From a virus, in the IMG/VR virus record IMGVR_UViG_3300034159_000059: DNA of 64,000 nt. One strand, 5' to 3'. Under the pieces are notes generated by a model. That model did not search any database. It saw only the letters and a program-made list of their open reading frames with translations, and was not told where the DNA came from. Position numbers and translations under genes: made by a program. This document shows positions 8,784 through 56,325 of this stretch, in pieces (position 1 is the stretch's first letter; each line of letters starts with the position of its first letter).

Positions 8784-8812
8784 GGGCCGCCGAAAGGCGG
8801 CCCGTCTCTTAG
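8784..8812. terminator. Hairpin terminator at the convergent gene boundary
   Basis: GGGCCGCC-gaaa-GGCGGCCC followed by GTCTCTTAGC; lies between the last + gene and the first minus gene. Confidence 0.6.
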
Positions 8813-8830
8813 CTCAAGCTCTTAGCCCGT

Positions 8831-9145
8831 CTACGACTTCACGACGGCCAGCGATGTGAGCTGCCCGGAGGTATTCATGGTAAGGGCGAGGGACATTGTC
8901 TCCACCAAGGTGCCTGATGCGTCGTACTGTTTCTTTGTGACGGAGGTTAGGACCCCACTCACGTCACGCGAGAGGGAAGTCTCTCGGATCTTCTGCGTCT
9001 TCCCTGAAGACGTCCAGAGGATGACAGAAGAGAGACGCCCATTCACGTCTCTCGACAGCTCTAGGTAGCCAGTGAAGAGGCTCCCGTGCGCCAGAGTGTG
9101 TCTGGTGTCGTGAGATACCTCGTTGATGATGTGAGGAATGGGCAT
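8831..9145 (-). CDS. Hypothetical protein (distal end of the tail operon)
   Basis: 104-aa ORF; start abuts the stop of the upstream fiber gene. Confidence 0.45.
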   Translation of the reverse strand: MPIPHIINEVSHDTRHTLAHGSLFTGYLELSRDVNGRLSSVILWTSSGKTQKIRETSLSRDVSGVLTSVTKKQYDASGTLVETMSLALTMNTSGQLTSLAVVKS

Positions 9146-9147
9146 GG

Positions 9148-10785
9148 TCAGCTCATAGCGATGACGAGGTCTCCGACGTTATGGACGTCAGCGTCGATCT
9201 GAGAGAGATCCTTCTGTCCTGTCCCCTTCAGGCTGTTCACGGCGTTGGTGATGGCCGTATTCGATGCCGGGTCGGGGGGCAGGTAGTCTGTCTTGGTTCG
9301 GATGGACCCCACGACGTCTCGGTCGATTTGTTGGAAGCCTGATGAGGTAGAGGCTGGGTCGGGAGGGAGGTTGTCCGTCTTGGCTTTGATAGCGACGATG
9401 CGATCTCTGTCATCGGACGTGAAAGCGTTGGCGCCTACACCAACCACTGAATCGATATGAGAGTTCGAGGCGGGATCGGATGGCAGGTAGTCTGTCTTGG
9501 CGCGGACCGCGACGATGTCTGAACGGTTGCTGTCTTCCGTAGACTTGATCGAAGCGAGGGTAGTGCGATCGGTAGACGTGAACGAGTTGTTGGTGACTGT
9601 AGCCACTGCCACGGCAGTGGCGTGCAGAGAGTCTGTCGAGCCCGTATATCCAGTACCTGCTAGATAGTCTCGGGCTCCGTTCACACCTGTGGCAGATGCC
9701 GGATCCGAAGGAAGGTTGTCGGTCTTGAGCTTGACCCCACGAGCGTAGACGTAGGTCTCGCTGATGGTCCTCTTCACATTCGAGCCGTAAGAGTTGTCGA
9801 GCCCGAAGAGAGCATCTCTGGCAGTAGTCACATCGCCCTGAGTAGACACTACGGAAGCGGGCATGACTGCGTTGATGGCGTTCAGTGCAGCACGATCGTC
9901 TGCGGTGAAGCCTCCTGATCCGGAGACGATGCCTGTGAGAGAGAGCTGAAGCTGGTGCAGGGAGTCTGTGGCCGCGCTGAAGCCCGTTCCTGCAAGAGCG
10001 GTGACATCACTCTGAGCCGCAGGAGTTGCTGGAAGGTTGTCGGTCTTGAGCTTGACCGCAGCGAGCTCGATCTGAATGTTGTGTAGAGAGTCTGTGCCAG
10101 AGACCCAACCCGAACCGCCTTTGAGCTCAGTGGCTCGGCTGTCTGTGTTCGAGTTGATGGACGTGACTGCACTCGTCACGTCCCCAACGGCAGCAGGAGC
10201 CGCTGGAAGGTTGTCTGTCTTCGCCTTGATGGCGTTGACGTTCGAGCGATCGGATGAGTTGAAAGAGTTCGTACCCAGCCACGTCTCGATCCCTGAAGTA
10301 GACACCGGATCGGAGGGCAAGTTGTCGGTCTTGGCCTTGACTGCCAGAAGCGTAGTGCGATCGTCTGAGCCGAAACCGCCACCAGAACTGCTTCCAGCAG
10401 ATACGTTCTGAATGTCCGCGGAGATGGAGGTGCTGACTGGAGTGCCGAGACGGTTGTATACGTCGGTCGCGTCTGCAACGACGATCTTCACCACTCCAGG
10501 GTATCGAGCCGCGCCGACGCACGTGACCATGTACTGGAACACACCAGGCTGATCTGTGTACGTCGCTGGGATGAGGATGTTGTAGTACCCAGCCTGGGAG
10601 TAAGCCCCTTGAGTCTTCTCCTCCCACATGCTCGGTGAGACGGTCAGATTAAACATCGTCCCATCGGATTTGATGACTGTGCAGTTGATGGAGCTGTACG
10701 CGACTCCGGCCATAGGCGCGTCAGAGACAGAGTCAACCAAGGTGACTGGCGCACGAACCACAGTGCTTTGCTTGTATTCAAGCAT
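9148..10785 (-). CDS. Tail fiber-like protein with tandem (A/K)KTDNLP(x)PA repeat units
   Basis: At least 7 copies of a roughly 35-45-aa unit …AVKAKTDNLPSDPAS…; paralog of 22433..23803 with near-identical stretches (DVTSAVTSINSN). Confidence 0.65.
   Translation of the reverse strand: MLEYKQSTVVRAPVTLVDSVSDAPMAGVAYSSINCTVIKSDGTMFNLTVSPSMWEEKTQGAYSQAGYYNILIPATYTDQPGVFQYMVTCVGAARYPGVVKIVVADATDVYNRLGTPVSTSISADIQNVSAGSSSGGGFGSDDRTTLLAVKAKTDNLPSDPVSTSGIETWLGTNSFNSSDRSNVNAIKAKTDNLPAAPAAVGDVTSAVTSINSNTDSRATELKGGSGWVSGTDSLHNIQIELAAVKLKTDNLPATPAAQSDVTALAGTGFSAATDSLHQLQLSLTGIVSGSGGFTADDRAALNAINAVMPASVVSTQGDVTTARDALFGLDNSYGSNVKRTISETYVYARGVKLKTDNLPSDPASATGVNGARDYLAGTGYTGSTDSLHATAVAVATVTNNSFTSTDRTTLASIKSTEDSNRSDIVAVRAKTDYLPSDPASNSHIDSVVGVGANAFTSDDRDRIVAIKAKTDNLPPDPASTSSGFQQIDRDVVGSIRTKTDYLPPDPASNTAITNAVNSLKGTGQKDLSQIDADVHNVGDLVIAMS
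9225..10350 (-). repeat. Intragenic tandem repeat array encoding the KTDNLP units
   Basis: Recurrent (a)agaccgacaacct(t/g)cc(g/a)tc… DNA units; segment 10185-10255 is nearly identical to 23155-23225. Confidence 0.5.
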
Positions 10786-11639: not shown

Positions 11640-12986
11640 CTATAGGTTGACGGGCATGAGGAAGAAGCGAAAAGTGCATACCGGGAAATAGGTGTAGAGG
11701 ATGACCTCTCCTATACTCGTAGAACTGTTGGTTCTAGAAGCAAAGGCGAAAGAAGACGCGCTGTACCCGTTGTACACGTCACCGGAAGGAGGCGTGTTAT
11801 TCCCTACACTGCCGGGGAAGTCACAGCGAATCATCACGTAGGTGTTGCCGTCATCAGAGGGTCCAAAACTCGCAAGATGGAGACCACTCGGATTCATGAT
11901 GGGGTACTTGAGGTACTTCACATCCCCTCGCTTCCCCTCATTCCCCACCATCCCTGTAGAGCTGGGCTTTGCACTCTGATACGCATCAACGTCGCAGTAC
12001 TGAAACCGAGCTGCGTCGTCGAGACTGGTTCTCGTGAAGTCGTCGAGGTACGAATACCCTCTCGGAGAGAGGGTCGTCATGCAGGGATGCTGGATTACGG
12101 AGTTGGACCACATGGTGCTACTGATGGACTTCCAGATCTCAGCGCATCCCACTGTGTTATTGGCGTCTGTAATACTTGTCGCATAGTATGCGTTCAACCC
12201 TGAGTAATCCATGTTCGAACACGCAAAGAGGAGGCAGGAAGTGTCCCCTACTCTGTAGGGAGTGAGATTCCCGACGTAGAGAAAGTCTGCGACTCCAGAG
12301 AAAGATGGATCTCCTGATGTCCAGAGCCCAAGAGCATCAGGCAGTGCCCATAGGATGTACTGAATCTTGCTGGTCGAAGACTGTTGAGAGCTGAAGCCTC
12401 TCATGATCTCCATCGTGCTCGGGTTGGCGCCGACATGGGTTGATGCGTTCCATGTCTCATACACCTGGACGAATAGTAGATCTCCGTAAGAAGCACCCCG
12501 AGCCAGTAGAACGTAGAAGGTCTTCTGCTGGCTCGTACACTGAAGAACAACGTACCCACCGGTCTTGGTGTACGCCCTGCCAGGAGAGATGCTGGTTCCT
12601 GTGTAGTTGCGATCCAGAGTCGCTTGGTAACCGTTGGCGTTGGCCGCGTTGATGGTGTACCAGTTGGACTGATCCGAAGAGATCTGAGTGACTCCGGGAG
12701 CGATACACCTCGCAAAGCGCATCGCGTTGTTGTTGCCTTGCGAGATGGCGCTAGACCCGTTGGTCATCGTGGTCCCGTTCGCAGATACCAAGCCGGTGAC
12801 GTAACCAGTACATGCAAACGGGACGACCAGAGGGGTTCCAGACCTCTGGTCATCGTATAGAGTCCAACCATTCACGCCACTTCCGATGTCAGCCACGATA
12901 TCGGAGAGGATGTTTGCGAAGCTCGAAACAGGAAGAGCGGTGTAGCCTTGAGGAGATCCACCAGTGTGAGGGAAGAACCCAGCCAT
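11640..12986 (-). CDS. Hypothetical tail fiber/baseplate-associated protein
   Basis: 448-aa ORF in the fiber cluster; Ser/Thr/Gly/Asn-rich, beta-rich composition. Confidence 0.5.
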   Translation of the reverse strand: MAGFFPHTGGSPQGYTALPVSSFANILSDIVADIGSGVNGWTLYDDQRSGTPLVVPFACTGYVTGLVSANGTTMTNGSSAISQGNNNAMRFARCIAPGVTQISSDQSNWYTINAANANGYQATLDRNYTGTSISPGRAYTKTGGYVVLQCTSQQKTFYVLLARGASYGDLLFVQVYETWNASTHVGANPSTMEIMRGFSSQQSSTSKIQYILWALPDALGLWTSGDPSFSGVADFLYVGNLTPYRVGDTSCLLFACSNMDYSGLNAYYATSITDANNTVGCAEIWKSISSTMWSNSVIQHPCMTTLSPRGYSYLDDFTRTSLDDAARFQYCDVDAYQSAKPSSTGMVGNEGKRGDVKYLKYPIMNPSGLHLASFGPSDDGNTYVMIRCDFPGSVGNNTPPSGDVYNGYSASSFAFASRTNSSTSIGEVILYTYFPVCTFRFFLMPVNL

Positions 12987-12992
12987 GTGTAG

Positions 12993-13637
12993 CTACCTCA
13001 TTCCGTAGTCAACGATCTGCACTTCGAGGTTGGAAGAAGATGTTGCGATGCCGAGCTGGATCATTCGATTTCCGGCCGACAAGGATTCGTACAGAGCAGG
13101 ATGCCCGTCCGTTGGACCTAGGAAGTAGGGAGTGCCTGGGGTGGCCCCTGAGAGGCCTCCAGTGAGTGCCCCGGCCACGAGAACCCCCACCCCGCCTCCT
13201 GATGCCACGGAGGCCGAAGCAACGCCTAGGACGAGGCTCTTGGCGTCGGTAGCGCAGTCTCCGTTCGCCACCCTCCCAGCCGAGGTGAGGTAGACCCCCG
13301 ACCCCTTCGTGACTCCATTCGAGACGAAGGTGGGCATGAGGAGGGTGGCAGTAGGAGCTCCTGGCCCGGCGCTTCCAGTCTGGAAGGCGGCCGAGATGGC
13401 TACACCAAGTTGACGGTAGAAAAGCTGGGCTGCTGCCGTCGTGAGGGAGAGGGATGCGGGGCTCTGATCCGGTCCTGGGGGAAGAACAGTTGCAGAAGGA
13501 AGAAGAGAAGGATCCGTCCCCCCTACTGCTCCGGACTCTATGAGTCGCAAGAAGGCTGCGACGAATGCTTCCGCGTTCGTGATGTCCGCGGTGGTGATCG
13601 GGAGAGGGCCGGTGGGAATCAGAACTGGATTCGGCAT
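12993..13637 (-). CDS. Hypothetical structural protein
   Basis: 214-aa ORF; Gly/Ala/Ser-rich. Confidence 0.5.
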   Translation of the reverse strand: MPNPVLIPTGPLPITTADITNAEAFVAAFLRLIESGAVGGTDPSLLPSATVLPPGPDQSPASLSLTTAAAQLFYRQLGVAISAAFQTGSAGPGAPTATLLMPTFVSNGVTKGSGVYLTSAGRVANGDCATDAKSLVLGVASASVASGGGVGVLVAGALTGGLSGATPGTPYFLGPTDGHPALYESLSAGNRMIQLGIATSSSNLEVQIVDYGMR

Positions 13638-13645
13638 CAGCTACC

Positions 13646-13903
13646 CTACCTCACGCTTCTGGTTGGCCGCATCGGGCTGAGCAGCTTCGGCTGTGGTTTG
13701 TAGATGCTCTCAGCCCACTGTGGGTCGATACGAACTCCGCAGAAAGGACAGTAGTTGATAGGAACGAGAAAGAAAACCCTTGGGTCGAACTCTGCACGGA
13801 CGCAGATGCTGAAGCGATCCGGATGCTGAGAGTAGGTGACGAGCGCATCGATGAAAGCCTGCATGAGATCGCAAGGAGTTCGGTCACAGACGCGATGAGC
13901 CAT
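13646..13903 (-). CDS. Small Cys-rich (zinc-ribbon-like) protein
   Basis: CDRTPCD…CPFCG cysteine pairs. Confidence 0.45.
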   Translation of the reverse strand: MAHRVCDRTPCDLMQAFIDALVTYSQHPDRFSICVRAEFDPRVFFLVPINYCPFCGVRIDPQWAESIYKPQPKLLSPMRPTRSVR

Positions 13904-13905
13904 GC

Positions 13906-14226
13906 TCAGCCTCCCTTCTGTCTTGCTGCCCTACGCTTGAGATACGAGAGGATCGTCTCTTCATCTTCGTCTTGCTTCACCATGAGCTGGATGGCCTCAT
14001 CTTCCCCAAAGACATCAAGGTCTTCATCTTTCAGCTTCGGGCGCTTCTTCGCCTCAACCGAGTCACTGGGAAGAACATGAACTCTCCCCAGGACATCGAG
14101 CATGAAGACAGCGGTACCGCAGCTTTTGAGAGCTGCGGTGGCCGCGATCCCGACTGCATAGAGGCTCGGGCGGTGCCCGCTCACGAGCTTGCTGAGAACC
14201 AAGTCCTCTTCGACCTTCTCCTCCAT
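13906..14226 (-). CDS. Hypothetical protein; first gene of this minus-strand block
   Basis: 106-aa ORF. Confidence 0.45.
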   Translation of the reverse strand: MEEKVEEDLVLSKLVSGHRPSLYAVGIAATAALKSCGTAVFMLDVLGRVHVLPSDSVEAKKRPKLKDEDLDVFGEDEAIQLMVKQDEDEETILSYLKRRAARQKGG

Positions 14227-14282
14227 GGGTCCTCCACTCCGGTTTGACAGTGCTACGCTGTCATTCTGCCACGTCCAGGCAG

Positions 14283-14359
14283 GTGAAAACCCCTTTCACT
14301 TCATGATACCAAAGCCGGTTTCGGTGCGGTAAACGTCGTGAAGTGAAAGCCCCTTTCAC
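14283..14359. promoter_or_regulatory. Two 17-bp perfect palindromes GTGAAA(A/G)CCCCTTTCAC, 60 bp apart; candidate operator pair
   Basis: 14283-14299 GTGAAAACCCCTTTCAC; 14343-14359 GTGAAAGCCCCTTTCAC; each preceded by (t)cgtgaa / caggcag(g); they sit in the divergent intergenic region upstream of the RHH-like gene. Confidence 0.5.
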
Positions 14360-14416
14360 CCTCGTACCCGGAACGGTGGCATCTTACATCAACTCGTCTT
14401 GAACAGGAGGTTGAGC

Positions 14417-14590
14417 ATGCCGGTAGGGTTCCCTCGCATGGAATTCCATCCCAGTCCGGATACCAGAAGGTACATCGAGAAGCTTCGAGAAGAGCTTTCG
14501 AAGAGCGCCAAGAAGCGAATTACCCTAAGTGAGGTTATCGAAGAGATTCTCCGCATGTACATCGAAAAGGCTGAGCGCGAGAGAGGGTAG
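14417..14590 (+). CDS. Small putative DNA-binding protein (ribbon-helix-helix-like)
   Basis: ATG 6 nt after AGGAGG; KKRITLSEVIEEILRMYIEKAE resembles the RHH/CopG beta-strand plus helix; directly downstream of the palindrome pair. Confidence 0.5.
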   Translation: MPVGFPRMEFHPSPDTRRYIEKLREELSKSAKKRITLSEVIEEILRMYIEKAERERG

Positions 14591-14674
14591 TTCTCAAGAA
14601 GCATCTTGCTTTTTCAGGTCTTGATGCTAAGAGATGCATGAGAAGAAGTTCTTCTCTCAAGAAAGGAAGAAGTC

Positions 14675-15280
14675 ATGCCTCGTGGCATTTACGATCGCAG
14701 TCAGATGAAGCCGAAGGGGACGGCCAAGACCGCCAAGGCGGCCGAGCCCACCACCGGCGGTGGGTCCGCTCTCACCAACTCCCCTCTGAAGAGGAAGTAC
14801 GTGAGGAAGGCCACCACACAAGCTCTCAAGGCTGTCCTCGACTCTCCCAAAGGGTTCGAGGCGTCTGGAACGGCGCCAGAGTCTGACCTCGGTGGCGTGG
14901 TCTTCTCTTCCGTCGGAATGCTCTACACCCATCTCGGTCAGCTCCACTCCGCAAGGGTGCAGCTCTCTCAGCAGAGCATCGACCACAACCCCAAGGTCAT
15001 CGCCGTCATCGACGAAGAGATCATCGCCACGCTCGGCTCTCTGAAGATCTGGAGACAGAACACCTTCAAGACCGAGAGCAAGGAGCCGGAAGCGCAGACC
15101 CAGAGCATCCCGGTGATCCCGCCGGCCCTTGTCGCAGCGGCCCCAGCGCCTGCCCCGGCACCCGCTCCAGCGCCTGCCCCTGCGTTCCAGGGAGCCTCTA
15201 CGATGACTCCGCCCCCCGCACCGCTCCCCTTCTCGCCCCAGACGGTCGAGGAAGTGCGCCGCGCATCCGGCCAGGCGTAA
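14675..15280 (+). CDS. Hypothetical protein with a C-terminal (Ala-Pro)n repeat
   Basis: RBS AAGGAAGAAG; AAAPAPAPAPAPAPAPAPA tract; simple DNA repeat at 15139-15186. Confidence 0.55.
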   Translation: MPRGIYDRSQMKPKGTAKTAKAAEPTTGGGSALTNSPLKRKYVRKATTQALKAVLDSPKGFEASGTAPESDLGGVVFSSVGMLYTHLGQLHSARVQLSQQSIDHNPKVIAVIDEEIIATLGSLKIWRQNTFKTESKEPEAQTQSIPVIPPALVAAAPAPAPAPAPAPAPAFQGASTMTPPPAPLPFSPQTVEEVRRASGQA

Positions 15281-15307
15281 CAAAACCGGCCGAGCAGAGA
15301 CTCGAAG

Positions 15308-15334
15308 GGCCCCGTTTCGGGGCCCTTTTTCTTC
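15308..15334 (+). terminator. Rho-independent terminator
   Basis: GGGCCCCG-ttt-CGGGGCCC followed by TTTTTCTT. Confidence 0.8.
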
Positions 15335-15386
15335 CCACGAGAGGCGTCTTCCTAGAGAATCCCCTTGAAACTGCAAGGGGATCCAC

Positions 15387-15599
15387 ATGGCGCTACGAGG
15401 TACAGTGAAGTGGTTCAACGATGCAAAGGGCTACGGGTTCATCAAGCCTGACGATGGGGGGAAGGACATCTTTGTCCACCACTCCGTCATCAAGATGGAT
15501 GGGTTCCGCACTCTCTCTGAAGGGGAGCGCGTCGAGTACACCATCGAGGCCGGGGCGAAGGGCCCGCAGGCCGTAAACGTCTCTCGCATCTCAGAGTAG
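15387..15599 (+). CDS. cspA: Cold-shock protein (CspA family, S1-like cold-shock domain)
   Basis: [35 protein letters not shown]…[20 protein letters not shown]: canonical CSD with RNP1 (KGYGFI) and RNP2 (VFVHH) motifs. Confidence 0.9.
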
Positions 15600-15614
15600 T
15601 GCTCAAGACAAGGG

Positions 15615-15658
15615 AAGGCCGCGCTCCCGGGGGGAAGAAGCGCGGCCTTCTTGTCGCC
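15615..15658. terminator. Hairpin terminator at the convergent boundary
   Basis: GAAGGCCGCGC-15 nt loop-GCGCGGCCTTC followed by TTGTCGCCC. Confidence 0.6.
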
Positions 15659-15680
15659 CTCCTGCCTCGTGGGGGGAGGG

Positions 15681-16397
15681 CTACGCTCCGATGGCTGCTT
15701 GAGCGGATGAGCCCGTGACCAGCGCGAGCTGAGCGACAGCGATGGGGACCACTCGCTCAGGCTGGAGTGCCACCTGCTCTTGCACCACACACCCCTGCGC
15801 GTCTGTCGCGATGGAGTGGGAGGGGATGTACGTCTCCTCCAAGTAGAAGGCGCAGAGCGTGGTCTCGTTCGAGTCCTTCATGTAGACGAGAAGACCACAC
15901 GGTTGCGAGAAGAGGTCCGACGCCAGGTTCAGGTAGATGTTCTCGAAGCCCGGCGGAATCTTCACGTCGTGTTGGTTGGCGACGCTCGCCATGATGTTCG
16001 GATCCACCCCGAACGTCGGAACGAGGGTGGGGGCCGGATCCTGGTAGAAGGCGTACATCACCCGGAGGATCGAGGGGCCGTTGTAGAGCACCCGTCCGAA
16101 GCCGGCCTGAGCGACGGTGCGCCCGGCGATGAAGTAGCTCCGCTCGCTCCCGAGCTCCCAGAAACGAGCGAAGGCCTTGTTGTGTGCGAGGTTGAAGTTC
16201 TGGACGATGCCGATGGGCAACGCCCAGTTCTGCTTGCCGACGGACGCCGCGGCTGCTGCTGATCCTCCCACGGCGGCGAGCCGGGGCGGACCAGCGGCGA
16301 GCATGGTGAAGACGCCCGAGGCGAAACGGCCCTCTCCCAGGGCCGACGAGTTGTCGACTTTCTGGGAGTAGGGCTGCCAGTTCGTGATGGAGGACAT
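15681..16397 (-). CDS. Tail structural protein (tube-like / tube-associated)
   Basis: 238-aa ORF immediately downstream of the sheath and putative tube genes. Confidence 0.45.
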   Translation of the reverse strand: MSSITNWQPYSQKVDNSSALGEGRFASGVFTMLAAGPPRLAAVGGSAAAAASVGKQNWALPIGIVQNFNLAHNKAFARFWELGSERSYFIAGRTVAQAGFGRVLYNGPSILRVMYAFYQDPAPTLVPTFGVDPNIMASVANQHDVKIPPGFENIYLNLASDLFSQPCGLLVYMKDSNETTLCAFYLEETYIPSHSIATDAQGCVVQEQVALQPERVVPIAVAQLALVTGSSAQAAIGA

Positions 16398-16437
16398 GAG
16401 CCGCTCCTTGAGTGAGGGTTGACGTCAACGCCTGTTG

Positions 16438-17079
16438 TTAGGCGTTGGCGAAGACCTCGAAGTCCTTCGAGCCATCGGCGAGGTTGCTCGCGGACGGAGT
16501 GAAGGCACTGTAGGTGAGGTCGATGGTGGAGACGTCCTGCACGCCTGCCACGAAGACCTGAACGTTGTCGCTCTGGAGCTTGACGGTCCCGCAGGCCAGC
16601 TTGTCGCCTGTGCCGAGAGAGACGACGTTGGTGGCGTGAGTGTCGGTGCCGCTACCAGTGTAGCTCATGCGCGTGACGGTCTTGAAGATCTTCGTCCCGT
16701 ACACGGCATTGCCCACACTGGCGACGATGGTATCGCTGGCCGCCTTACCGAACTGATCGGTGCCTTCGACCAGGACATCGCCGCCATCCCAGTCCGCGCC
16801 GAAGGTGCAGGAGACATTCCGAGCGAACGTGGGGTTGGTGGAAACCGTCACGCGCACCTTGGTGTCCGGGGCGACCGGAGCAGCGTCACCGAAGACGTTG
16901 GCATGAAGCACCGTGGCATTCTTCGCAGGCACGTCAGTGAGGGTGATCCTCACAGGAGAGCCCTTCACGTCTTCGGAGCCAGCTCCGTAAACGACGCCCT
17001 GGGCAGTGTAATCGCCCCTCCTCGCCAGGTTGGTGAGGAAGGTCCGAGCTCGATTCGAGAGGGAAGTGGGGACTGCCAT
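16438..17079 (-). CDS. Putative tail tube protein
   Basis: 213-aa beta-rich ORF directly downstream of the sheath gene (canonical myovirus order). Confidence 0.45.
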   Translation of the reverse strand: MAVPTSLSNRARTFLTNLARRGDYTAQGVVYGAGSEDVKGSPVRITLTDVPAKNATVLHANVFGDAAPVAPDTKVRVTVSTNPTFARNVSCTFGADWDGGDVLVEGTDQFGKAASDTIVASVGNAVYGTKIFKTVTRMSYTGSGTDTHATNVVSLGTGDKLACGTVKLQSDNVQVFVAGVQDVSTIDLTYSAFTPSASNLADGSKDFEVFANA

Positions 17080-17108: not shown

Positions 17109-20100
17109 TCAGACCACGAGCGTGAGGCGGATGTAGTTGCAGGGGTACGGGACGTCGAGGGTCACGTCGATCATCACGGTGTCCGGGTTCTCCGGGTCCT
17201 GGATGATGTTGTTGAGCTGCGCTCCGTTGAGGATGCCATTGTCCTTCAGGAACTCCAGCATGCCGGTGATGGTCGTCCCGATGGTGTCGAGGAAGACTGA
17301 GGTGATGTTCTGCCGGCCGATGAAGCGACGGATACCTGCCCGAAGGAACTTGGCGACGAAGTCGACGTCCTTCGTGATCGAGAGCTCTCGCGTCTCGATG
17401 GTCGATGTGTCGGTGGAGAGCTGGTGCCGGCAGAATACCGGTCCGCCCTGCACCTCCTGCATGAGGATGAAGGCACCTCCACCCGCCATCTGATCGAGCT
17501 GCTTCTTGGTGAACTTCTCCGTCCCCACCACCCCGGTGAGGCCGGTCATGGGGTAGTTGGTGAGTCCCTGCTGCGGAGGCAGGCCAGCGATCATGCCTGC
17601 CACGACCGCACAGGCGTAGTAGCCGGGGACTTCCTTCTCCAGACCCGCGACGGTGGTCTTCACCGTATCGGGGAAGAAGGAGTAGGCCCGCCGGTTCGCG
17701 ATGCCAGAGTTCAGCGTCGCGACGGTAGAGGCGACGAGGGAGTAGTCCGGTTTGGCGGGGGAAGAGCCTGCGATCATCAGGCTCGCGCCGCGCACATTCA
17801 TGCTCCAAGCCGCATCGAGGATGTCGGTTGGAAGGGCTACGACCTCGTAGAAGTAGTCGTCGTTCTCTCCGGCCGCGAAGGTGGTACGGAGATTCACGAG
17901 GCCGCCGGTCACCGAGGAGATTGAGTAACGGTAGAAGACGCCGTTCCAGTTGAACTCGATGTAGACGCCATTCGCCACGGTGAAGGGCAGTGACGGATTG
18001 ATTCCGGCATCGACGAGACCAGCTTGAGGCGTGACGTCGACGAGGAGCTGGTCGGCAGTGGCAGTCGAGTTCGCAGAGACGCCACTCACGACCGCCCTTG
18101 GGGCGCGGGTAGTGGGCTGCGTCTTGTTGAAGAGGACGATTCGCTCGCCCATCTCCTCGGGCTGGCTCATCAGCGTGACGTGGGTGTTGAAGAGCTGATG
18201 CACCACATCATTCTGGGTGAGCAGTGCGATGGTGTAGACCTCTTCCGACTCCAAGAAGTCGGCTGCTCTGGCGTAGGCGAGCTCGGTTCCTTCCGGAGCG
18301 GAGCCAGAGATCTCGTCGACCCCGAGGGCACCGACCACGAATCCTGGGCAGTTGAGAAGAGCCAGGTAGGTACCGAAGGCGAGAGGGTTGGCGTCCGTCA
18401 CCGGGTCCATCACCGAGGTGAGGGTGCTGGTGTCTTGGAGATGGACGACTCCCGCGACTGCCGCGGACGCCGAGACATCGCGACGAAGTCCCTTGAACTG
18501 GATGTAGAGAGATGCCGGGCTGGTGGCGAAGTCGAGGGGGTAGCCAGTGACTGGATCGCGGACGAGATCCGGACCGATCACCAGGTTGCTGCTCACATCG
18601 ACGTAGGCGTCAGGATTCGGACGCCCTGTTCCGGCTGTCGCGGTCTGCGCTGCCGTGAAGCCGAGAGCCGTGAGAGCGGTTCCGTCGACGATGTAGACCA
18701 GAGATCCCGCGCCAGCAAGGGTGCTGGTGAGGACGAGGTTCGTCCCCGCTCCGTTCTTCGAAGCGACTGTGCCACCGACGAGCTGGTTGACGGTGTCGAC
18801 GGCGATGTCGAGCGAGGTATCGGTGAAGCCCACATCGTAGACGTGAGCGCCTCGGTCTAGAGAGAATCGGAGGTTCTCTCCAGTGAGCCCAGAGAACGAA
18901 GCGTCGGTTCCGGTACCGCTGGTGTCCGCGCTGGTGGAGTAGCCGAGGACCGTGGCCGCGGAGCTCGTCGCCTTGAAGGTGATGCTCTGAAGCCTTCCCG
19001 TCTTGGCGGTGGCAAGCTTCAGCTTGCCGGAATCGACAGAGGCAACGACGCCCGTGATGCTGACGGCCGCAGCCATTCCGGCGACGGTGGTGACGGGGGT
19101 GGAGCTTGTGAAGGTGAACGTTCCGACTGTCGCGACTCCATCCACCGTGAGGATGTAATCGATCCGGAGACCGGCGAGAGCCACGCCTCCGGACGGATCC
19201 GGGACGGCCCCGCCTTCGACCGAGGCGGCCACTGCTGCGGAAGCCGCAGCCGATCCCGTGACGGTGGACTTGGTTGCCGAAACGGTGGGCGAGAGCCCCG
19301 TTGCCTTGAACCACACGTACTGCGGCGCGAAGGGGGCAGCGTCGATGGGAAGACCGAGAAGAGCGTCGTCGTAGGTCTTCGAGAGGTAGCGGCCTTCCGT
19401 GTCAGCGGTAGAGAGGGCAGCGTCGATGGTGCCCATCCGGAAGCGAGTCGGATCGACGCGAGAGATCTCACCGCTCTTGAGCCGCGTGCCGTCGGCCCAG
19501 ATCTGATCCCCTGCCAGGATCGGGATGCCGTTGGTGCCGAAGGTGATGGCGGCAGAGCGTGCATGCGTCAGCGCGCCTGTGGCGACGTTGATCATGCCGG
19601 CATGAGAGGCCCAGGCCGAGTCTGCCGAAGAGACCCCACCCACGCTGTAGTCGCCACGGAAGAACTCGATCCAGGCGCTCTGTGTGGTGTTGTTCTGGAG
19701 GTTGTATGCACGGTAGCCGGCGCCGCACACCCTCTCTTCGGTTCCGACAGAGCCGACGGAGTTCCAGCCGATGCCGAGAAGAGCATTCGCCGTCCCACCC
19801 GCGCGCACCGTGATTGAGGAGAGCGCCCCGTAGCTCGGAGAGGAGAGACGGACGCCTGTGACGGAATCCCCCGACACAGTGACCGAAGCGATCGCCATCC
19901 CAAAGGCGTTGTTGATGACGGTGACGATGTCGGCCGGCGCGTAAGGAGACGAGCCCGGAAACGGGATGGTCACGTCTTGCGTGGTGTTGGCCGTAGTCGG
20001 CTGGTCGATGGCGAGAACGAGGTTCTGCCCACCGATGGAGAAGCTGGTTCCGACGATGTCGAGGACCGCCTTGGACGCCACATGGCTTGCGACCAGGAAG

Positions 20101-20426
20101 CCTTCTCCAGGATTCATCAGGAGCTCAGCGAGCCGACCTCCTGTGTAGAGGAAGGGACGGATCGAAGCCGTCTGGATGTCGACCTCGTCGATGTTGCCTC
20201 GCGGGTTCGGGAAAGACGAATGGGTGATCGTCTTTCCGAGCTGCGCGTAAGCACCGTACTTCGCCTTCGAGTTGATGGTTCCATCGGAGGTGAGGACGTT
20301 GATGACCTCGAAGGCCGCACCGACGATGACCGGCGCGAGCGTCGGCGTGAGGAACGTCGGCGACGTCTTGCGCGCGGTCTGAATGACATCGACGCCTGGC
20401 CGGGCGATCTCAGCAGTGGCGGCCAT
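17109..20426 (-). CDS. Tail sheath protein (1105 aa, with large insertion domains)
   Basis: N-terminus MAATAEIARPGVDVIQT… and C-terminus …QGGPVFCRHQLSTDTS…YIRLTLVV match the conserved sheath terminal domains; the long Thr/Ser/Gly/Ala middle is consistent with extra insertion domains. Confidence 0.8.
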   Translation of the reverse strand: MAATAEIARPGVDVIQTARKTSPTFLTPTLAPVIVGAAFEVINVLTSDGTINSKAKYGAYAQLGKTITHSSFPNPRGNIDEVDIQTASIRPFLYTGGRLAELLMNPGEGFLVASHVASKAVLDIVGTSFSIGGQNLVLAIDQPTTANTTQDVTIPFPGSSPYAPADIVTVINNAFGMAIASVTVSGDSVTGVRLSSPSYGALSSITVRAGGTANALLGIGWNSVGSVGTEERVCGAGYRAYNLQNNTTQSAWIEFFRGDYSVGGVSSADSAWASHAGMINVATGALTHARSAAITFGTNGIPILAGDQIWADGTRLKSGEISRVDPTRFRMGTIDAALSTADTEGRYLSKTYDDALLGLPIDAAPFAPQYVWFKATGLSPTVSATKSTVTGSAAASAAVAASVEGGAVPDPSGGVALAGLRIDYILTVDGVATVGTFTFTSSTPVTTVAGMAAAVSITGVVASVDSGKLKLATAKTGRLQSITFKATSSAATVLGYSTSADTSGTGTDASFSGLTGENLRFSLDRGAHVYDVGFTDTSLDIAVDTVNQLVGGTVASKNGAGTNLVLTSTLAGAGSLVYIVDGTALTALGFTAAQTATAGTGRPNPDAYVDVSSNLVIGPDLVRDPVTGYPLDFATSPASLYIQFKGLRRDVSASAAVAGVVHLQDTSTLTSVMDPVTDANPLAFGTYLALLNCPGFVVGALGVDEISGSAPEGTELAYARAADFLESEEVYTIALLTQNDVVHQLFNTHVTLMSQPEEMGERIVLFNKTQPTTRAPRAVVSGVSANSTATADQLLVDVTPQAGLVDAGINPSLPFTVANGVYIEFNWNGVFYRYSISSVTGGLVNLRTTFAAGENDDYFYEVVALPTDILDAAWSMNVRGASLMIAGSSPAKPDYSLVASTVATLNSGIANRRAYSFFPDTVKTTVAGLEKEVPGYYACAVVAGMIAGLPPQQGLTNYPMTGLTGVVGTEKFTKKQLDQMAGGGAFILMQEVQGGPVFCRHQLSTDTSTIETRELSITKDVDFVAKFLRAGIRRFIGRQNITSVFLDTIGTTITGMLEFLKDNGILNGAQLNNIIQDPENPDTVMIDVTLDVPYPCNYIRLTLVV

Positions 20427-23823: not shown

Positions 23824-24720
23824 TTACGCGCTCACCTGCTGAAGAGCCTTGGACTGCAACGCCTTCTGCGCGAACGGACCTGCGGCGGCACCGCCGATGC
23901 TCCCCTTGACAGCCCCACCTGCCATAGAGCCTAGGAGAGAATGACCCTGTCGCTCCTGCGGGGAGCGCATCATCTGCCTCGCCCCACCTGCTGCTGCACC
24001 GAGGCCTGCGCCGACGAGAGCGCGCTGCTTGAGAGACGTACCCGCTGTCGCCTGCAAGGCACTACGTGCGATGGGAGCTGCCTTGGTCACTGCCGCCTTG
24101 GCGGCTGGGAGAACTTTCCCTGCGATCCCGGCTAGCATGCCCGGGATCGCTCCTTCCTTCTCCATTAGCGCCCGCATCAGCTCCACCGAAGACTGCTTGA
24201 GCTTCTCGTCCGAGGCCGGGCCTCGAATGACCCGATGCGCGAGACGGCCGGCGCCGTATCCAGTCATAGCCCCTACGACGGGGTTCTTGTTCTTAGAAGC
24301 TTGCCGGAGCGCTCCGAAGAGAGCTCCAGTGTTGCTCCATCCCTCGGCGCGTTCCCTCTTGGTCTTCGGGGCCCGATCCTTCTTCTCGGAGAGCTTCTCC
24401 ATGTCCGCTCGGGCCAGATCACGAGCCCATCCCGCAACCGTCGCGATCTTGAGAGCCGAGACCTTCGTGAAGCCGGTCTTCTTGGCGGTGTCGGACATCC
24501 TCTGGATGGCCTCCTTCATACCGCCAACGGACTCATGCATCTTGGTGAGAGCCTTCTTAGGGGCCGGAGGGTGGAGAAGTGCCGGCTTGACTGGAGGCAC
24601 CATCCCCTCCTTCACGATGGCGGAAAGCTGCTCCACTGAGAGGGTCTTGAGGTAGTCGACGGGCTGCGAATCTTCTTCGAGGTACGTCGCGAGCAAGGTT
24701 TCGTAGTTCATTTTGTCCAC
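23824..24720 (-). CDS. Gly/Ala-rich basic hypothetical virion protein
   Basis: 298 aa; low-complexity G/A/K-rich; composition like 44654..45553 and 60375..61106. Confidence 0.5.
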   Translation of the reverse strand: MDKMNYETLLATYLEEDSQPVDYLKTLSVEQLSAIVKEGMVPPVKPALLHPPAPKKALTKMHESVGGMKEAIQRMSDTAKKTGFTKVSALKIATVAGWARDLARADMEKLSEKKDRAPKTKRERAEGWSNTGALFGALRQASKNKNPVVGAMTGYGAGRLAHRVIRGPASDEKLKQSSVELMRALMEKEGAIPGMLAGIAGKVLPAAKAAVTKAAPIARSALQATAGTSLKQRALVGAGLGAAAGGARQMMRSPQERQGHSLLGSMAGGAVKGSIGGAAAGPFAQKALQSKALQQVSA

Positions 24721-43712: not shown

Positions 43713-43952
43713 ATGCTCGTGCTGGTGAAGTGCCACTGCTGTGATGTCCCCTTCCACTTCCCACAAGAGGTCCTCGCCCGGATGAAGGTTCCGTCGACCT
43801 TCTGCGAGCGCTGTTTCAACAGCTTCGACGCACTCACCCTTCGAAAGTGGTTCGTGGTCGACATTCTCCATCGACAGGTTCAGGAACTCTCCCGAACCAT
43901 CGAACAGGTGTTGGGTGGTCTTGTGAACCAAACGCCGACAGCGCTTGGGTAG
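43713..43952 (+). CDS. Cys-rich small protein (zinc-ribbon-like)
   Basis: KCHCCD…FCERCF cysteine pairs. Confidence 0.45.
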   Translation: MLVLVKCHCCDVPFHFPQEVLARMKVPSTFCERCFNSFDALTLRKWFVVDILHRQVQELSRTIEQVLGGLVNQTPTALG

Positions 43953-50013: not shown

Positions 50014-53000
50014 TTAGTAGGCGAACGGCTTCTTGCGAGTGACTTCCTTCGGAGGAGCCCCGAACTCCTTGCCGTAGGCGATTCCAGGAATGGGGTGAGC
50101 GCCGTGGATGTCGCTCTTCCACGCCTGACTGGCCCCTCGCTGAAGGGTCTGCTTGAGGCGCTGGTAGTTGAGGCGAGCCATCCAGTCGGTAGACTGGTTG
50201 GGGATGTTTCCAGAGCCAGGAAGCATGGGCTCGTGTGTGATTGGCTGCTCGTGCGTCTTGCCTTTGTTGTTGCGGTTGAACTCCTCCACCAAGGAGTGCG
50301 GAACTACGTCTCCTGGATCCCACTGAGAGCTGCCAGGGTCCTTGATCCGAGTGTAGTTGGTGAGGCTTCGAACCACGAGCTCGATGTTACGTGGCCGGAC
50401 GTTTTCGTCCTTGTAGAGCTTCCTGTAGAGCTCGTCGACCAGGTGGCGCTGCACCCCATGCATGTCCTTGGTGATGTGGAGGAGCTCCTTCGGGTGAATC
50501 GGAGCCATCTCATGAGACAAGCTCTCGCCTCGACGCACCTCCGCTCCAACCACAAGAGCAGGGTTGATTTCTCCTTCTCGAATGTGGTGGTCGATCCCGT
50601 TGATGGTAACGACGTGGCCACCAAGACCGGGGTCTGGCTTGATGCCTGTGACGGTTCCTGTGGTCTTGGCAAGAATGGCTGACCCCTTCAAGATCTTCGG
50701 CATCTTGAGTAGGTCCTTCAGTCGTTGAATCCTGGAGACGGAACCACCTCCACGGCCCGACGCGATACCTCCGGTGTGGAAGGCATCCATGGCGAGCTGA
50801 GTCGCGGGCTCGCCCAAAGCTTGTCCAGCGAGGACGCCGATGTTGGTCCCCACCGGATGGAGCTTCCCATTCTCATTGAGGCCGAAACACTTAGAGCAGA
50901 CACCTTCTCCGTGCTGGCACTTGAGAGGGGAGCGGACTTGGATCTTGGCGTCCTTCCCAAGAACCTGACGCAGGCGATCTACGAGAGCAGGAGTGACCTG
51001 TTCCCCCGCCTTGAAAGGCCCGTGGTCCTTGGCCAAGAACCGATCGTAGACGTCGAGATGGTAGGGATCCTTGGGGTCGAGAGGCATCAGGATGCCGTGC
51101 TGCGTTCCACAGTCCTCGCTCGTGATGAGCGTCGAGATTGTGGAGTTGATGATGTCCTTCGTCATCGCGCCAGGCTCTCTCGTACCGCTGGCGCGCTGGA
51201 GAGTTCCCTTGCGGGCGCCGTGCTGGGCGAGCCAGTAGTCTCCGACGTCGAGCCCCTCTCCGTAGGACCTGGTGATGGGGAAGGGAACCACGCGGCCCGT
51301 AGAATCCTGCACAAGCATCGGGGCTGCGATCATCTGTCGAAGCTGCTCTGGTTTTCCACGCGCACCGGAGTAGACCATGGCGCCGAGGTGGCTACCTTCT
51401 TTTGGCAGCCGCACTCTCGCTGCGGCGTCGAGCTTCTCCGTTGCCTTGGAGAAGATCTCCACCAGCTTCGCCTCCCTCTCCCATGAATGAAGAGACGGGT
51501 CGATCTTTGCTGCTTGATGCTGCGCCTCCGCTACGATCTGGTCGCGCTCAGGCAGAGGAGCAAAGTCCTTCAGACTGAGAGAGAACCCGTGCTTGAAGGA
51601 CTGCTCAGTACCCAGATCCTTCAGGTTGTTCACCACCTTGTCGAACTCTCCAGGATGCTTCTTGGCGAGCTCGGTGACAATGGAGCCCATTGGCTTCTTG
51701 GAGATCTCGAACTCGGGGTCGTAAAGCACTTGCCCCCGCATCGCGAAATCCCGAGGAAGGCGGGATTCGATCCGTAGACGGCCAAGCGTAGTAGGCCGGT
51801 TCCCGACTTGTTCGACTCGGACTACATCTGTGTGAGTCAGGAGTCCTTTGTCGACCAGGTCTGAGAGCTCATCGACGGTCTTCACGGTCTTGCCGGAATC
51901 CTTACCCCATTTGGAGATGAGGTGAAGGCCGAGCAGGAACTCCTGGGAAGGGATGTGCATCGCGCCGTAGGTCGTGGGAGAGAAGAGGTTCCGTGAAGGG
52001 AACATCTTCTTCGCCTCTTCCACCGCTTCTTGGGAAATAGGGACGGTGCCCGCCATCGTATCGCCGTCGAAGTCGGCGTTGAAGCCGCCACAGACCAGCG
52101 GGTGGATCTTGATGGCCTTGCCTTCCACCGTCTTGGGGCGGAACGCTTGAACCGAGAACTTGTGCAGAGCCGGATCTCTTTTGAGAAGAAGGGGTCGATC
52201 CTTCATCACCTCGTCGAGAGCCTTCTTGGCATGATCCGACTGTGCCTTCATCTCGGACATAGCTTGAGAAGGCGTGTATCCGTAGCGCGAGTGCATATGC
52301 GCCACGACGAAGGGCTTGTAGAGCTCCATCGCGGCCACACGGGGAAGCCCGATCTCGTCGATGTGAAGGGAAGGTTCAGGGACGATGGTGGACCGAATTG
52401 ACAGGTCCTGCTTCCGCTTGACGAGCTTCTCTTGGAAGTACCCCTCCTTCGGCTGATCTCCACCGATGAGGTCCACAATACCCTTCAGCTCTCGGTTGTC
52501 GAAGCTCTCCTTGTCGTAGATGGGTGTGTAGTCTCCGACAGCCTGTAGAGCCTTCATGCTGTTCCAGAGCTCGCCGCGGAGCTCGTGGACCATCTCATGC
52601 CCATACTTCTCCGCAGGCATGACCTTCATCTTCTCATTCACAAGACCCACGGTCTTGTAGAGGTCGTTGAGAGAGCTCTTCGCCACATCACCGCGTGCCG
52701 TGGGAGTCACTGGACGGAAAGCAGCCGGCAGGACCGGGATGTTTTGAAGCACGTAGGCCTCGTGCGGCTTCATGTCGAGGTCCTTCAGTGCCAGAAGGTA
52801 CTTGAGCGTGCGGTTGCTCTGGTCGCGCTTCGAGCCTCTCTTCGTAGGAAGCTCCTCCCGCAGCTTCTTGATCTCCTCTTCGACGTTGACGCTCTTCAGA
52901 GCGTCTGCGATGGCTCGACCCCCCACCTTCCCGTCGAGGGTGCTCTGCCCTGACATGATCTTGTCCACTTCCTGGACGGAGATGTCGCCATGCTTGAGGG

Positions 53001-56000: not shown

Positions 56001-56325
56001 ACTCACCCCCGTCCACGATGAACGAGTAGCGAGAGGTGAGCTTGGGGACCCGAGCGAGTTGGATGGTCGACTTGGAGATGGGCTTGCCCGTGATGTTGTC
56101 GATCAGCTCCATCTCCGCCCGGATCGGCACACCCCAAGTCTGTTCGTTGTGCTTGGCTTGGAGCTGCGAAGCGACATCGTTCGGATCGAGAGTATCTTCC
56201 GCCCAGATTCTCTTGAGCGACAGAGTTCTCTGACTCGTCTGGATGGGGAAGATGCTGGAAATCTGCTGGATGACGCCATTGGTGAGGGTCGTCATCTTGT
56301 CGGCGGTCTTAGGCTCACCGGCCAC
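50014..56325 (-). CDS. rpoBC: Single-polypeptide bacterial-type multisubunit RNA polymerase: beta (RpoB-like) fused to beta' (RpoC-like), 2103 aa
   Basis: Beta signatures [12 protein letters not shown] and [22 protein letters not shown]…[17 protein letters not shown]; beta' catalytic motif [24 protein letters not shown]; the beta' N-terminal Zn-finger region appears absent; GTG start with GGAG RBS (alternative ATG at 56295). Confidence 0.9.
   Translation of the reverse strand: [2103 protein letters not shown]

Follow-up and report, generated by a model that had tools for sequence, protein, structure and literature searches.

Paired inverted-repeat sites beside a probable ribbon-helix-helix gene, and a separate cold-shock gene unit, in the tail region of an uncultured large phage

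Introduction

In the immI region of phage P22, the ribbon-helix-helix (RHH) repressors Arc and Mnt act on operators situated between the divergent promoters Pant and Pmnt, next to the tailspike gene. Half-sites with centres 11 bp apart are the arrangement of RHH repressors that bind as a dimer of dimers, such as Arc. The morons of lambdoid phages are units of promoter, gene and terminator that are inserted between late genes. The present analysis concerns a 64,000-nucleotide stretch of viral DNA (IMG/VR record IMGVR_UViG_3300034159_000059, hereafter the window), which is part of an uncultured myophage-like genome of a tailed phage of approximately 200 kb. It deals with a pair of inverted-repeat sites lying between two divergent genes, p106 and RHH57 (the latter encoding a small, probable RHH protein), and with the two genes that follow RHH57 on the plus strand, namely AP201, encoding an Ala/Pro-rich protein, and csp, encoding a cold-shock protein (Table 1).

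The explanation that best accounts for the locus as a whole, with a probability that we put at roughly 0.55, is that the two sites would constitute an operator pair of the Arc/CopG style, bound by RHH57 at back-to-back promoters, with csp forming a separate unit. Within this explanation, we infer the site-binding protein, the positions of the promoters and the direction of regulation from sequence. A first-pass annotation had described the locus as a repressor-operator cassette controlling a moron. Its observation of a small RHH-type protein beside a paired inverted-repeat site holds, and the site behaves as a conserved element among relatives.

Table 1. Features of the p106–csp region of the window
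Feature	Position	Strand	Remarks
p106	13906–14226	−	106-amino acid (aa) conserved gene, divergent from RHH57; heads the distal tail-side gene string (p85, p214, p448 onward)
Leftward −10-like hexamer CAGAAT	14263–14268	−	Candidate p106 promoter element; GAGAAT in relative L024
79-bp dyad	14282–14360		Both sites with mirrored inner flanks; 25-nt arms (14282–14306 and 14336–14360), 80% complementary
Site 1, GTGAAA-ACCCC-TTTCAC	14283–14299		GTGAAAACCCCTTTCAC; 56 nt from p106 start codon
Site 2, GTGAAAG-CCC-CTTTCAC	14343–14359		GTGAAAGCCCCTTTCAC; 57 nt from RHH57 start codon
31-nt block	14371–14401	+	GAACGGTGGCATCTTACATCAACTCGTCTTG; between site 2 and ribosome-binding site; 28/31 positions identical in L024
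RHH57	14417–14590	+	57 aa; AGGAGG 6 nt upstream of ATG; probable ribbon-helix-helix protein
Weak hairpin AAGCA-TCT-TGCTT then TTTC	14599–14615	+	After RHH57; possible attenuator; kept in L024
AP201	14675–15280	+	201-aa Ala/Pro-rich protein
Intrinsic terminator	15304–15333	+	GGGCCCCG-TTT-CGGGGCCC then TTTTTCTT; after AP201, strong; 56-nt segment 15285–15340, −24.4 kcal/mol
csp promoter-like boxes	TTCCCA 15332–15337; GAGAAT 15355–15360	+	17-nt spacer; putative promoter
csp-proximal hairpin	15359–15382	+	ATCCCCTTG / AAACTG / CAAGGGGAT; −14.7 kcal/mol, z −3.3
csp	15387–15599	+	70-aa CspA-family cold-shock-domain protein; RNP1 KGYGFI, RNP2 IFVHH
Hairpin shared by convergent csp and tail-tube-like genes	15614–15650		15 pairs; terminator-like on minus strand

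The paired sites

The two sites lie 60 bp apart from start to start. Their coordinates and their distance agreed with the first-pass annotation, while its term "perfect palindromes" did not, as site 1 is an inverted repeat with 6-bp arms and a 5-nt spacer (ACCCC) and site 2 one with 7-bp arms around CCC. The centres of the GTGAAA and TTTCAC half-sites are 11 bp apart, which is about one helical turn. Searching the window with the site pattern and up to three mismatches gave four matches against 0.37 expected, a number reached in none of 100 shuffles. The remaining two matches were site 2 read on the reverse strand and a three-mismatch match at 43741, so the window holds no further real copy. 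Within the 190-bp intergenic region, the 14/15 repeat was reached in none of 200 dinucleotide shuffles. A search for further copies, which had been suggested earlier, yielded four single matches in IMG/VR on unrelated contigs, consistent with chance, and the matches listed from a metagenome motif scan were single random ones. With a conserved 22-mer as the query for regulatory regions resembling that of the window, no matches were found in IMG/VR.

The flanks of the sites are related in sequence, as had been noted, but they are mirrored rather than direct, with TTCATGA following site 1 and TCGTGAA preceding site 2. Together, sites and inner flanks form a 79-bp dyad, in which site 1 reads GTGAA facing TTCAC with an additional TTCAT to its right, and site 2 reads GTGAA facing TTCAC with an additional GTGAA to its left, giving one extra flanking half-site per site. 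The setting is a divergent one, a point missing from the earlier description, with the minus-strand start of p106 to the left of site 1, and the sites may also regulate a p106 promoter. On the other side, the RHH57 gene is promoter-proximal in the window and has a good Shine-Dalgarno sequence.

Conservation of the sites among relatives

Relatives were collected using the tube-like protein (15681–16397) as query, which gave 19 loci in IMG/VR on contigs of up to 210 kb. Twelve of these (L001–L012), with a tube identity of at least 75%, are treated as close relatives, and L013–L019 as distant ones. In addition, a 1774-bp JGI contig (L024) bears the entire cassette and encodes an RHH protein 86% identical to RHH57.

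In L024 the sites read GTGAAAATCCCTTTCAC (site 1) and GTGAAAGGCTCCTTTCAC (site 2), and in both of them the GTGAAA/TTTCAC arms are identical to those of the window. The 60-bp spacing is kept, together with the distances of 56 nt (p106) and 57 nt (RHH) to the start codons, the flanking half-sites of the TTCAC/GTGAA type and the flanking CTTCA(C/T)GA and TGAAGT elements. The spacers are altered (ACCCC to ATCCC, and GCCCC to GGCTCC) and the intervening DNA between the sites has diverged. The β-strand of the RHH protein, FPRMEFHP, is identical between window and L024. The RHH protein of L002, at 46% identity, has the strand DPRVEFRP, and in the homologous place of this locus two partly palindromic 15-mers (GGAAAACAGGCTTCC and GGAAGCCAGCTTTCC) are found 61 bp apart. 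These are of the type GGAAA..CTTCC with arms of 4–5 bp, and a pair as good arose in 1 of 200 shuffles. Scanning IMG/VR for further relatives with the L002 RHH protein returned only itself. In L001, where the strand is DPRTEVRF, the RHH-proximal site is kept as GAGAAGCCAGGTTTCTC.

Conserved half-sites with free spacers, a geometry that is kept, and a half-site change that tracks the recognition strand fit an operator for a dimeric protein. Operator specificity would thus appear to change in step with the adjacent RHH protein, making RHH57 the candidate binder, if not one proven by these features. Conservation among the relatives supports a function of the sites as a protein-binding element.

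Candidate promoter elements around the sites

The leftward hexamer CAGAAT sits in a block, GCTGTCATTCT, that is common to the window and L024. It is a candidate −10 element for p106 and, given a 17-nt spacer, its −35 position would land inside site 1. On the RHH57 side, the 31-nt block is kept in L024 although the adjoining intergenic DNA has diverged, and CATCTTA of this block also occurs in L001 and L002; the block is probably the core promoter or the leader of the RHH gene. Sigma-54 and extracytoplasmic function (ECF)-type promoters were checked for by eye in this block and ruled out on spacing (GGAAC-20 nt-CGTCT). Spacing also ruled out an identity of the half-sites with those of CRP, FNR or LexA. 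A direct repeat (D2, 14379–14402 and 14601–14624) was taken as chance, since it is not kept in L024. Two further short inverted repeats, TGACAG-N7-CTGTCA (14245–14263) and CTGCC-N7-GGCAG (14266–14282), separate site 1 from the start of p106, the former overlapping a perfect TTGACA (14244–14249) that has no matching −10.

RHH57

The AlphaFold2 (AF2) model of RHH57, built with a 23-sequence alignment, has a predicted local distance difference test (pLDDT) score of 86.8, with residues 1–13 extended and helices at 14–31 and 37–56. This is the RHH topology of an N-terminal strand and two helices in approximately 45–60 aa, with formation of the strand itself expected only upon dimerization. Foldseek against the PDB gave RHH proteins as the best matches (NikR, ParD/PrpA and ParD2) with template modelling (TM) scores of 0.5–0.68 but E > 1, as expected for a monomer of 57 residues. 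In a profile search of the PDB, the top matches were of the CopG family (E 0.016), with three of the top four being RHH proteins, and in hhalign the strand and both helices lined up in register with those of CopG (E 6e-4) and Arc (E 0.012). RHH57 itself had no match in Pfam; two of 11 members of its family matched Pfam RHH_1 with E 0.017, below threshold, and the match to PHROG 582 ('Arc-like repressor') had E 0.06.

The family comprises 24 proteins, most of them encoded on large contigs (up to 209 kb), and belongs to a single clade of phage contigs of about 140–210 kb. Its members follow a pattern of a strand (YRxEVRL), helix A, a turn (GKxVSxS, within the consensus GKxVSxSxLV; G/K-x-V-S/T-x-S) and helix B. 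The alternating polar and hydrophobic strand and the G-x-S/T-type turn of RHH proteins are both recognizable in RHH57, as PRMEFHP and as KKRITLSEV, with K in place of G. Taken together, an RHH fold for RHH57 is probable. The weak hairpin that follows the gene was not called by the terminator scan.

The csp unit

The csp product was identified as a canonical CspA-family protein, as proposed earlier, by a match to PF00313 (105.6 bits against a cutoff of 27, E 1.2e-30), with both RNP1 and RNP2 present in the cold-shock domain, and by a match to PHROG 729 (E 1.4e-23). Among NCBIfam models (NF049933 and NF007679 were tested as CspE/CspA equivalogs), it scored below cutoff for CspE (113.1 against 120) and for CspA (100.8 against 130), and it is a generic member of the CspA family, not a named ortholog. 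The closest bacterial Csp proteins come from Gemmatimonadota and Actinomycetota metagenome-assembled genomes (60–72% identity), which is not decisive for the host. Within the phage clade, the Csp proteins are only 50–72% identical to each other, no closer than they are to bacterial Csp proteins.

The first-pass annotation had placed csp under the control of the paired sites and their RHH protein. This was not supported, as a strong intrinsic terminator and a second hairpin intervene between the sites and csp, and conserved promoter-like boxes lie directly upstream of the gene. A GC hairpin with a T-run precedes these boxes in most relatives. With the same geometry (approximately 17 nt), the boxes are present in the window, L002–L010, L012 and L024, which amounts to 11 of 13 csp-carrying relatives and to 10 of 11 distinct sequences; no such boxes were detected in L011. 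The first box is T[AT]CCCA, or TTGCA/TTGGCA in L009, L010 and L012, and the second is GA[GCA]AAT. In L010 and L012, the TTGGCA box is also part of a sigma-54-like string, TGGCAC-N4-TGC. The boxes survive the insertion of cargo between AP201 and csp (a GroES gene in L007 and an Endonuclease VII-like open reading frame (ORF) in L010). The box pattern occurs once in the window; a role as a general phage promoter was ruled out on this ground, a looser match at 23914–23942 lying inside a minus-strand ORF. An origin as a host csp promoter was without support, as 2 of 80 bacterial csp upstream regions match the loose pattern.

Strong terminators had been proposed after both AP201 and csp. The former was confirmed. 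The hairpin that follows csp is very stable, but only its minus strand, serving the convergent tail-tube-like gene, is scored as a terminator (−36.7 kcal/mol with z −3.3, against −32.9 kcal/mol on the plus strand, where the U-tract is poor). Because there is a strong terminator upstream and conserved boxes that are kept even where genes are inserted, csp is read as an insulated single-gene unit, probably outside the RHH57 circuit. Its description as self-contained and terminator-flanked is in keeping with this; terminators are found on both sides of csp, and the conserved −35/−10 geometry suggests a promoter of its own.

A csp-proximal hairpin reported earlier is real, although it is better parsed as in Table 1. 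All 24 of its nucleotides are identical in L024, where the adjacent spacer has diverged. Its 3' arm holds a Shine-Dalgarno-like AAGGGGA and its 5' arm overlaps the −10-like box. Owing to this overlap, transcripts starting 5–9 nt after the box would probably be without the 5' arm, and the hairpin could then be active only in read-through RNA, masking the Shine-Dalgarno sequence, or as DNA. Stable stem-loops (z −2 to −4) were seen to start 0–4 nt after the GAnAAT box in five of seven lineages (the window, L007, L008, L009 and L010). Their position is conserved while their sequences are unrelated, which is hard to square with the box being a −10 element; the true csp start may lie further upstream than a −10 reading implies. 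In L003–L005, the csp frame begins at a GTG 6 nt after the GAGAAT/GACAAT box (e.g. L003, ~9128–9140), which indicates either a leaderless mRNA with a GUG start or use of the box (GGAGA) as a ribosome-binding site.

Over 15316–15653, the Rfam model RF01766 (cspA thermoregulator) scored 84.1 bits (gathering score, 78). In this alignment, 107 positions of the model's 5' untranslated region (UTR) are deleted (90 and 17 positions replaced by 5 and 9 nt), and the aligned and paired parts are the csp coding sequence and the 3' hairpin, that is, coding region and terminator. The structured cspA 5'UTR of approximately 160 nt is absent here, with at most 53 nt between the U-tract of the terminator and the csp ATG. 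The likeness to structured csp leaders seen by the first-pass annotation was not supported, given this short leader, the deleted UTR positions and the overlap of the hairpin with the −10-like box.

AP201 and distribution of the cassette

The Ala-Pro-repeat protein of the first-pass annotation corresponds to AP201. The protein begins with the motif MPRGxYDRS and ends with PLPF(S/T)PQxV; between these lie, in order, a linker rich in basic residues and Ala, a helical hairpin and an (AP)n linker. Across the family alignment, the end motifs MPRGxYDRS and PLPF(S/T)PQ are invariant. A homolog search by word index was swamped by the Ala/Pro repeat and gave one match. A full HMMER search of 1.84 billion representatives identified 26 unannotated clusters, and the family is restricted to the clade. 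AP201 matched no family in Pfam or NCBIfam. The AF2 pLDDT of 53.8 provides no confident model, and most of the protein is of low complexity or disordered. In some members, the basic linker contains GRP motifs, which are AT-hook-like. The AP201 homolog directly follows the RHH gene in all relatives that have it. No toxin match was found in Pfam, NCBIfam or PHROG; since AP201 is not a recognizable toxin, RHH-AP201 was ruled out as a recognizable type II toxin-antitoxin module.

In the 12 close loci, the slot between the tube gene and p106 is occupied by genes on the opposite strand. A csp gene is present in this slot in 11 of the 12 (L002–L012) and in L024, being absent only in L001. With a hidden Markov model of RHH57, a homolog was identified in every close locus with sequence there (L001–L007 and L009–L011). 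The cassette is absent at this place in the distant loci L013–L019, which have no csp near the tube gene. Because RHH and AP201 are found wherever a relative has sequence at this place, csp in nearly all relatives, and the whole cassette in L024, the trio is, on the evidence of these loci, a feature of the clade. The earlier notion of a moron, if taken to mean a recent, sporadic insertion, was for this reason not supported. In its content, however, the slot is plastic.

In L007, a GroES/Cpn10 gene (~9182–9473, minus strand in locus orientation; PF00166, E 9e-32) lies between the AP201 homolog and csp, and the slot seems to collect cargo of the chaperone type. Minus-strand ORFs flank csp in L010 and L012, with that at 8812–9204 matching Endonuclease VII (E 1.2e-6) and that at 9521–9955 looking similar. 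In L003–L006, the opposite-strand cassette is enlarged by 4–7 kb of extra genes (e.g. L004, 8874–15912).

Proposed mechanism and alternative explanations

Under the preferred explanation, RHH57 dimers would insert their N-terminal β-ribbon into GTGAA half-sites, and each operator, GTGAA(A)-N5-7-(T)TTCAC, would be bound cooperatively by a dimer of dimers, as by Arc and CopG. RHH57 would repress its own rightward promoter, serving RHH57 and, through the weak hairpin, probably AP201 too; at site 1 it would also modulate the leftward promoter at which transcription resumes for the distal tail-side genes. The csp gene would lie outside this circuit, in the order of terminator, promoter-like boxes, Shine-Dalgarno sequence, csp and shared terminator, and would supply an RNA chaperone or antiterminator of the CspA/CspE type during infection.

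Several observations weigh against this explanation. The distal site of L001 is degenerate, with no convincing second site. In L003–L006 the RHH gene is not promoter-proximal but overlaps or abuts an upstream gene, and the gene divergent from p106 in L004 and L006 encodes an AAA ATPase (PF07728/PF00004); for these reasons, autoregulation at an adjacent promoter is not universal in the RHH family. A scan of 13000–17000 for consensus sigma-70 promoters found none, which leaves the overlap of operator and promoter as conjecture. The 60-bp distance, about 5.7 helical turns, is out of phase for looping between the sites. Symmetric changes in an inverted repeat suit an RNA or DNA hairpin equally well, and the sequence and fold evidence for RHH57 as an RHH protein is sub-threshold for each line taken singly.

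A different dimeric regulator, of the phage or of the host, might use the sites as operators or activator sites in timing the promoter from p106 onward, with RHH57 having its target elsewhere. The sites are as near to p106 as to RHH57, and a restart promoter for p106 is needed since the cassette and the 15614–15650 hairpin interrupt the tail gene string. Palindromes also occur upstream of p106 in L004 and L006, where the RHH gene is kilobases away; in L006 this is the 15-bp sequence AGAAGTGCCACTTCT, a perfect palindrome located ~40 nt upstream of p106 (~12560–12600) and ~2.8 kb from the RHH gene. It has GAAGTG/CACTTC in common with the inner flanks of the window sites. We nevertheless consider another regulator unlikely, as the half-sites are identical where the RHH β-strand is identical (L024) and different where the strand differs (L001 and L002), and Pfam, PHROG and NCBIfam scans gave no other DNA-binding protein beside the sites. 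An action of the element as RNA, with the copies pairing or self-folding in a 5' leader to give an RNase III-type processing site or a stabilizer, is less likely still. As RNA, either strand of the dyad does form a single long hairpin (about −47 kcal/mol), with arms that are kept in L024, but the z-scores are modest (−2.1 and −1.7), and for a transcript to include the whole hairpin, it would need to begin no more than ~56 nt from the opposite start codon, where there is no promoter-like site. Moreover, the arms in L002 are too weak for individual hairpins, and the extra flanking half-sites and the spacing of about one turn favour protein binding.

The model of the first-pass annotation in full, by which RHH57, AP201 and csp would form one recent moron under a single autoregulated RHH-operator promoter, with a cspA-like leader hairpin, can draw on the co-orientation and close spacing of the three genes, on the Rfam score, and on L003–L005, where the AP201 homolog is not separated from csp by a terminator and co-transcription is possible. 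It is very unlikely to be correct in view of the terminator and boxes immediately upstream of csp, the clade-wide occurrence of the cassette, an Rfam alignment carried by coding sequence and 3' hairpin, and a leader hairpin that overlaps the −10-like box and would be more stable in the cold, not less. That the repeats are a product of chance or neutral, functionless remnants (of a small duplication, for example) may be suggested by there being only two copies, yet is scarcely credible given the shuffling results, the retention of half-sites, spacing and position in L024 amid diverged DNA, and the analogous pair in L002.

A broader proposal would see RHH57-AP201-csp as a conserved timing module of an undescribed clade of ~200-kb phages, in which the bipartite operator links RHH expression to the tail restart promoter, the clade-specific AP201, with its conserved end motifs MPRGVYDRS and PLPFTPQAV, is a new host-targeting effector, Csp is an antiterminator or RNA chaperone for hairpin-rich late operons, and the slot is a hotspot for chaperone cargo. 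As a whole this is speculative, and we regard it as improbable.

Genome context

The long ORFs between ~9.1 kb and 28.2 kb are all on the minus strand, with 14417–15599 as the sole exception; here the string of minus-strand tail genes is split by the plus-strand trio, which has p106 on one side and the tube-like gene on the other. This confirms the earlier view of a plus-strand island inside a minus-strand structural block, a neighbour of which matches tail sheath: the 1105-aa ORF at 17109–20426 (minus strand) matched PHROG 279 tail sheath (E 1.6e-16), with Pfam Phage_sheath_1 below threshold. The profile matches of this homolog are confined to its last ~200 residues (930–1105 for PHROG 279 and 906–997 for Phage_sheath_1), leaving a large N-terminal region unannotated, and an annotation search of the ORFs adjoining it gave none. 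Homologs of p106 were found in eight relatives at the same position after the tube-like gene; scans of Pfam, PHROG and NCBIfam gave no family match for it. The 85-aa protein that follows p106 (13646–13903, minus strand) has a CPFCG motif and a weak match to DUF6980 (E 0.003), and may be a small zinc-ribbon protein. An ORF of 2103 aa was observed at 50014–56325 (minus strand). A protein identical to most of RHH57 is present on a 209-kb JGI contig. Among GenBank phages, no relative of the window was found at the DNA level, matches being limited to the csp segment and the distal sheath.

Comparison with known systems

RHH autoregulators and phage-borne csp genes are already well known, and current concepts are unchanged by the present locus. 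The main gain lies in the evidence for operator conservation, in csp not being under the palindromes, and in a caveat on the Rfam match, as a 'cspA thermoregulator' match at gathering score can come from coding sequence alone; the csp result corrects an easy mis-annotation. If the link between RHH57 and the operators is true, it would provide the first regulatory handle on an uncultured clade of large phages, a repressor-operator pair at a tail restart promoter, and the natural variants (GTGAAA against GGAAA/GAGAA half-sites, with differing β-strands) would make a small model of RHH-operator co-evolution.

Auxiliary 'cspA' genes of viruses have been reported in viromes (PMC13656477). We found a csp homolog in 96 GenBank phage records. 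The csp gene of the window resembles phage-borne CspA genes (PHROG 729) in encoding one ~70-aa cold-shock domain that contains RNP1 and RNP2, and differs from them in its fixed slot, convergent with a tail-tube-like gene across the clade, and in its own conserved boxes. With the Escherichia coli cspA thermosensor (RF01766) it shares a score above the gathering threshold but not the long structured 5'UTR. Like a lambdoid moron, csp has a terminator on either side as well as promoter-like boxes, and lies between tail genes of the opposite strand; unlike one, its position is conserved in the clade rather than sporadic, with only L001 lacking it.

Regarding the regulator, RHH proteins of the CopG/ParD/omega type (PF01402) gave the best, though weak, matches to RHH57, and are similar in small size, in being promoter-proximal and in having short arrays of direct and inverted half-sites. 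RHH57 departs from them in falling below Pfam thresholds, in its confinement to one phage clade and in being without a partner toxin, partition ATPase or replication gene. Arc of P22 is unlike RHH57 in sequence, no relation being detected (hhalign probability 3.6%); P22 has one 21-bp operator, where here there are two operators 60 bp apart with extra half-sites, and the downstream gene here is AP201, not an antirepressor homolog. The two systems are nevertheless alike in having an RHH protein of ~55 aa encoded by the first gene of a short operon, in a divergent region among late/tail genes, with inverted half-sites approximately one turn apart, and the expected outcome would be the same, namely autoregulation together with control of the opposing promoter.

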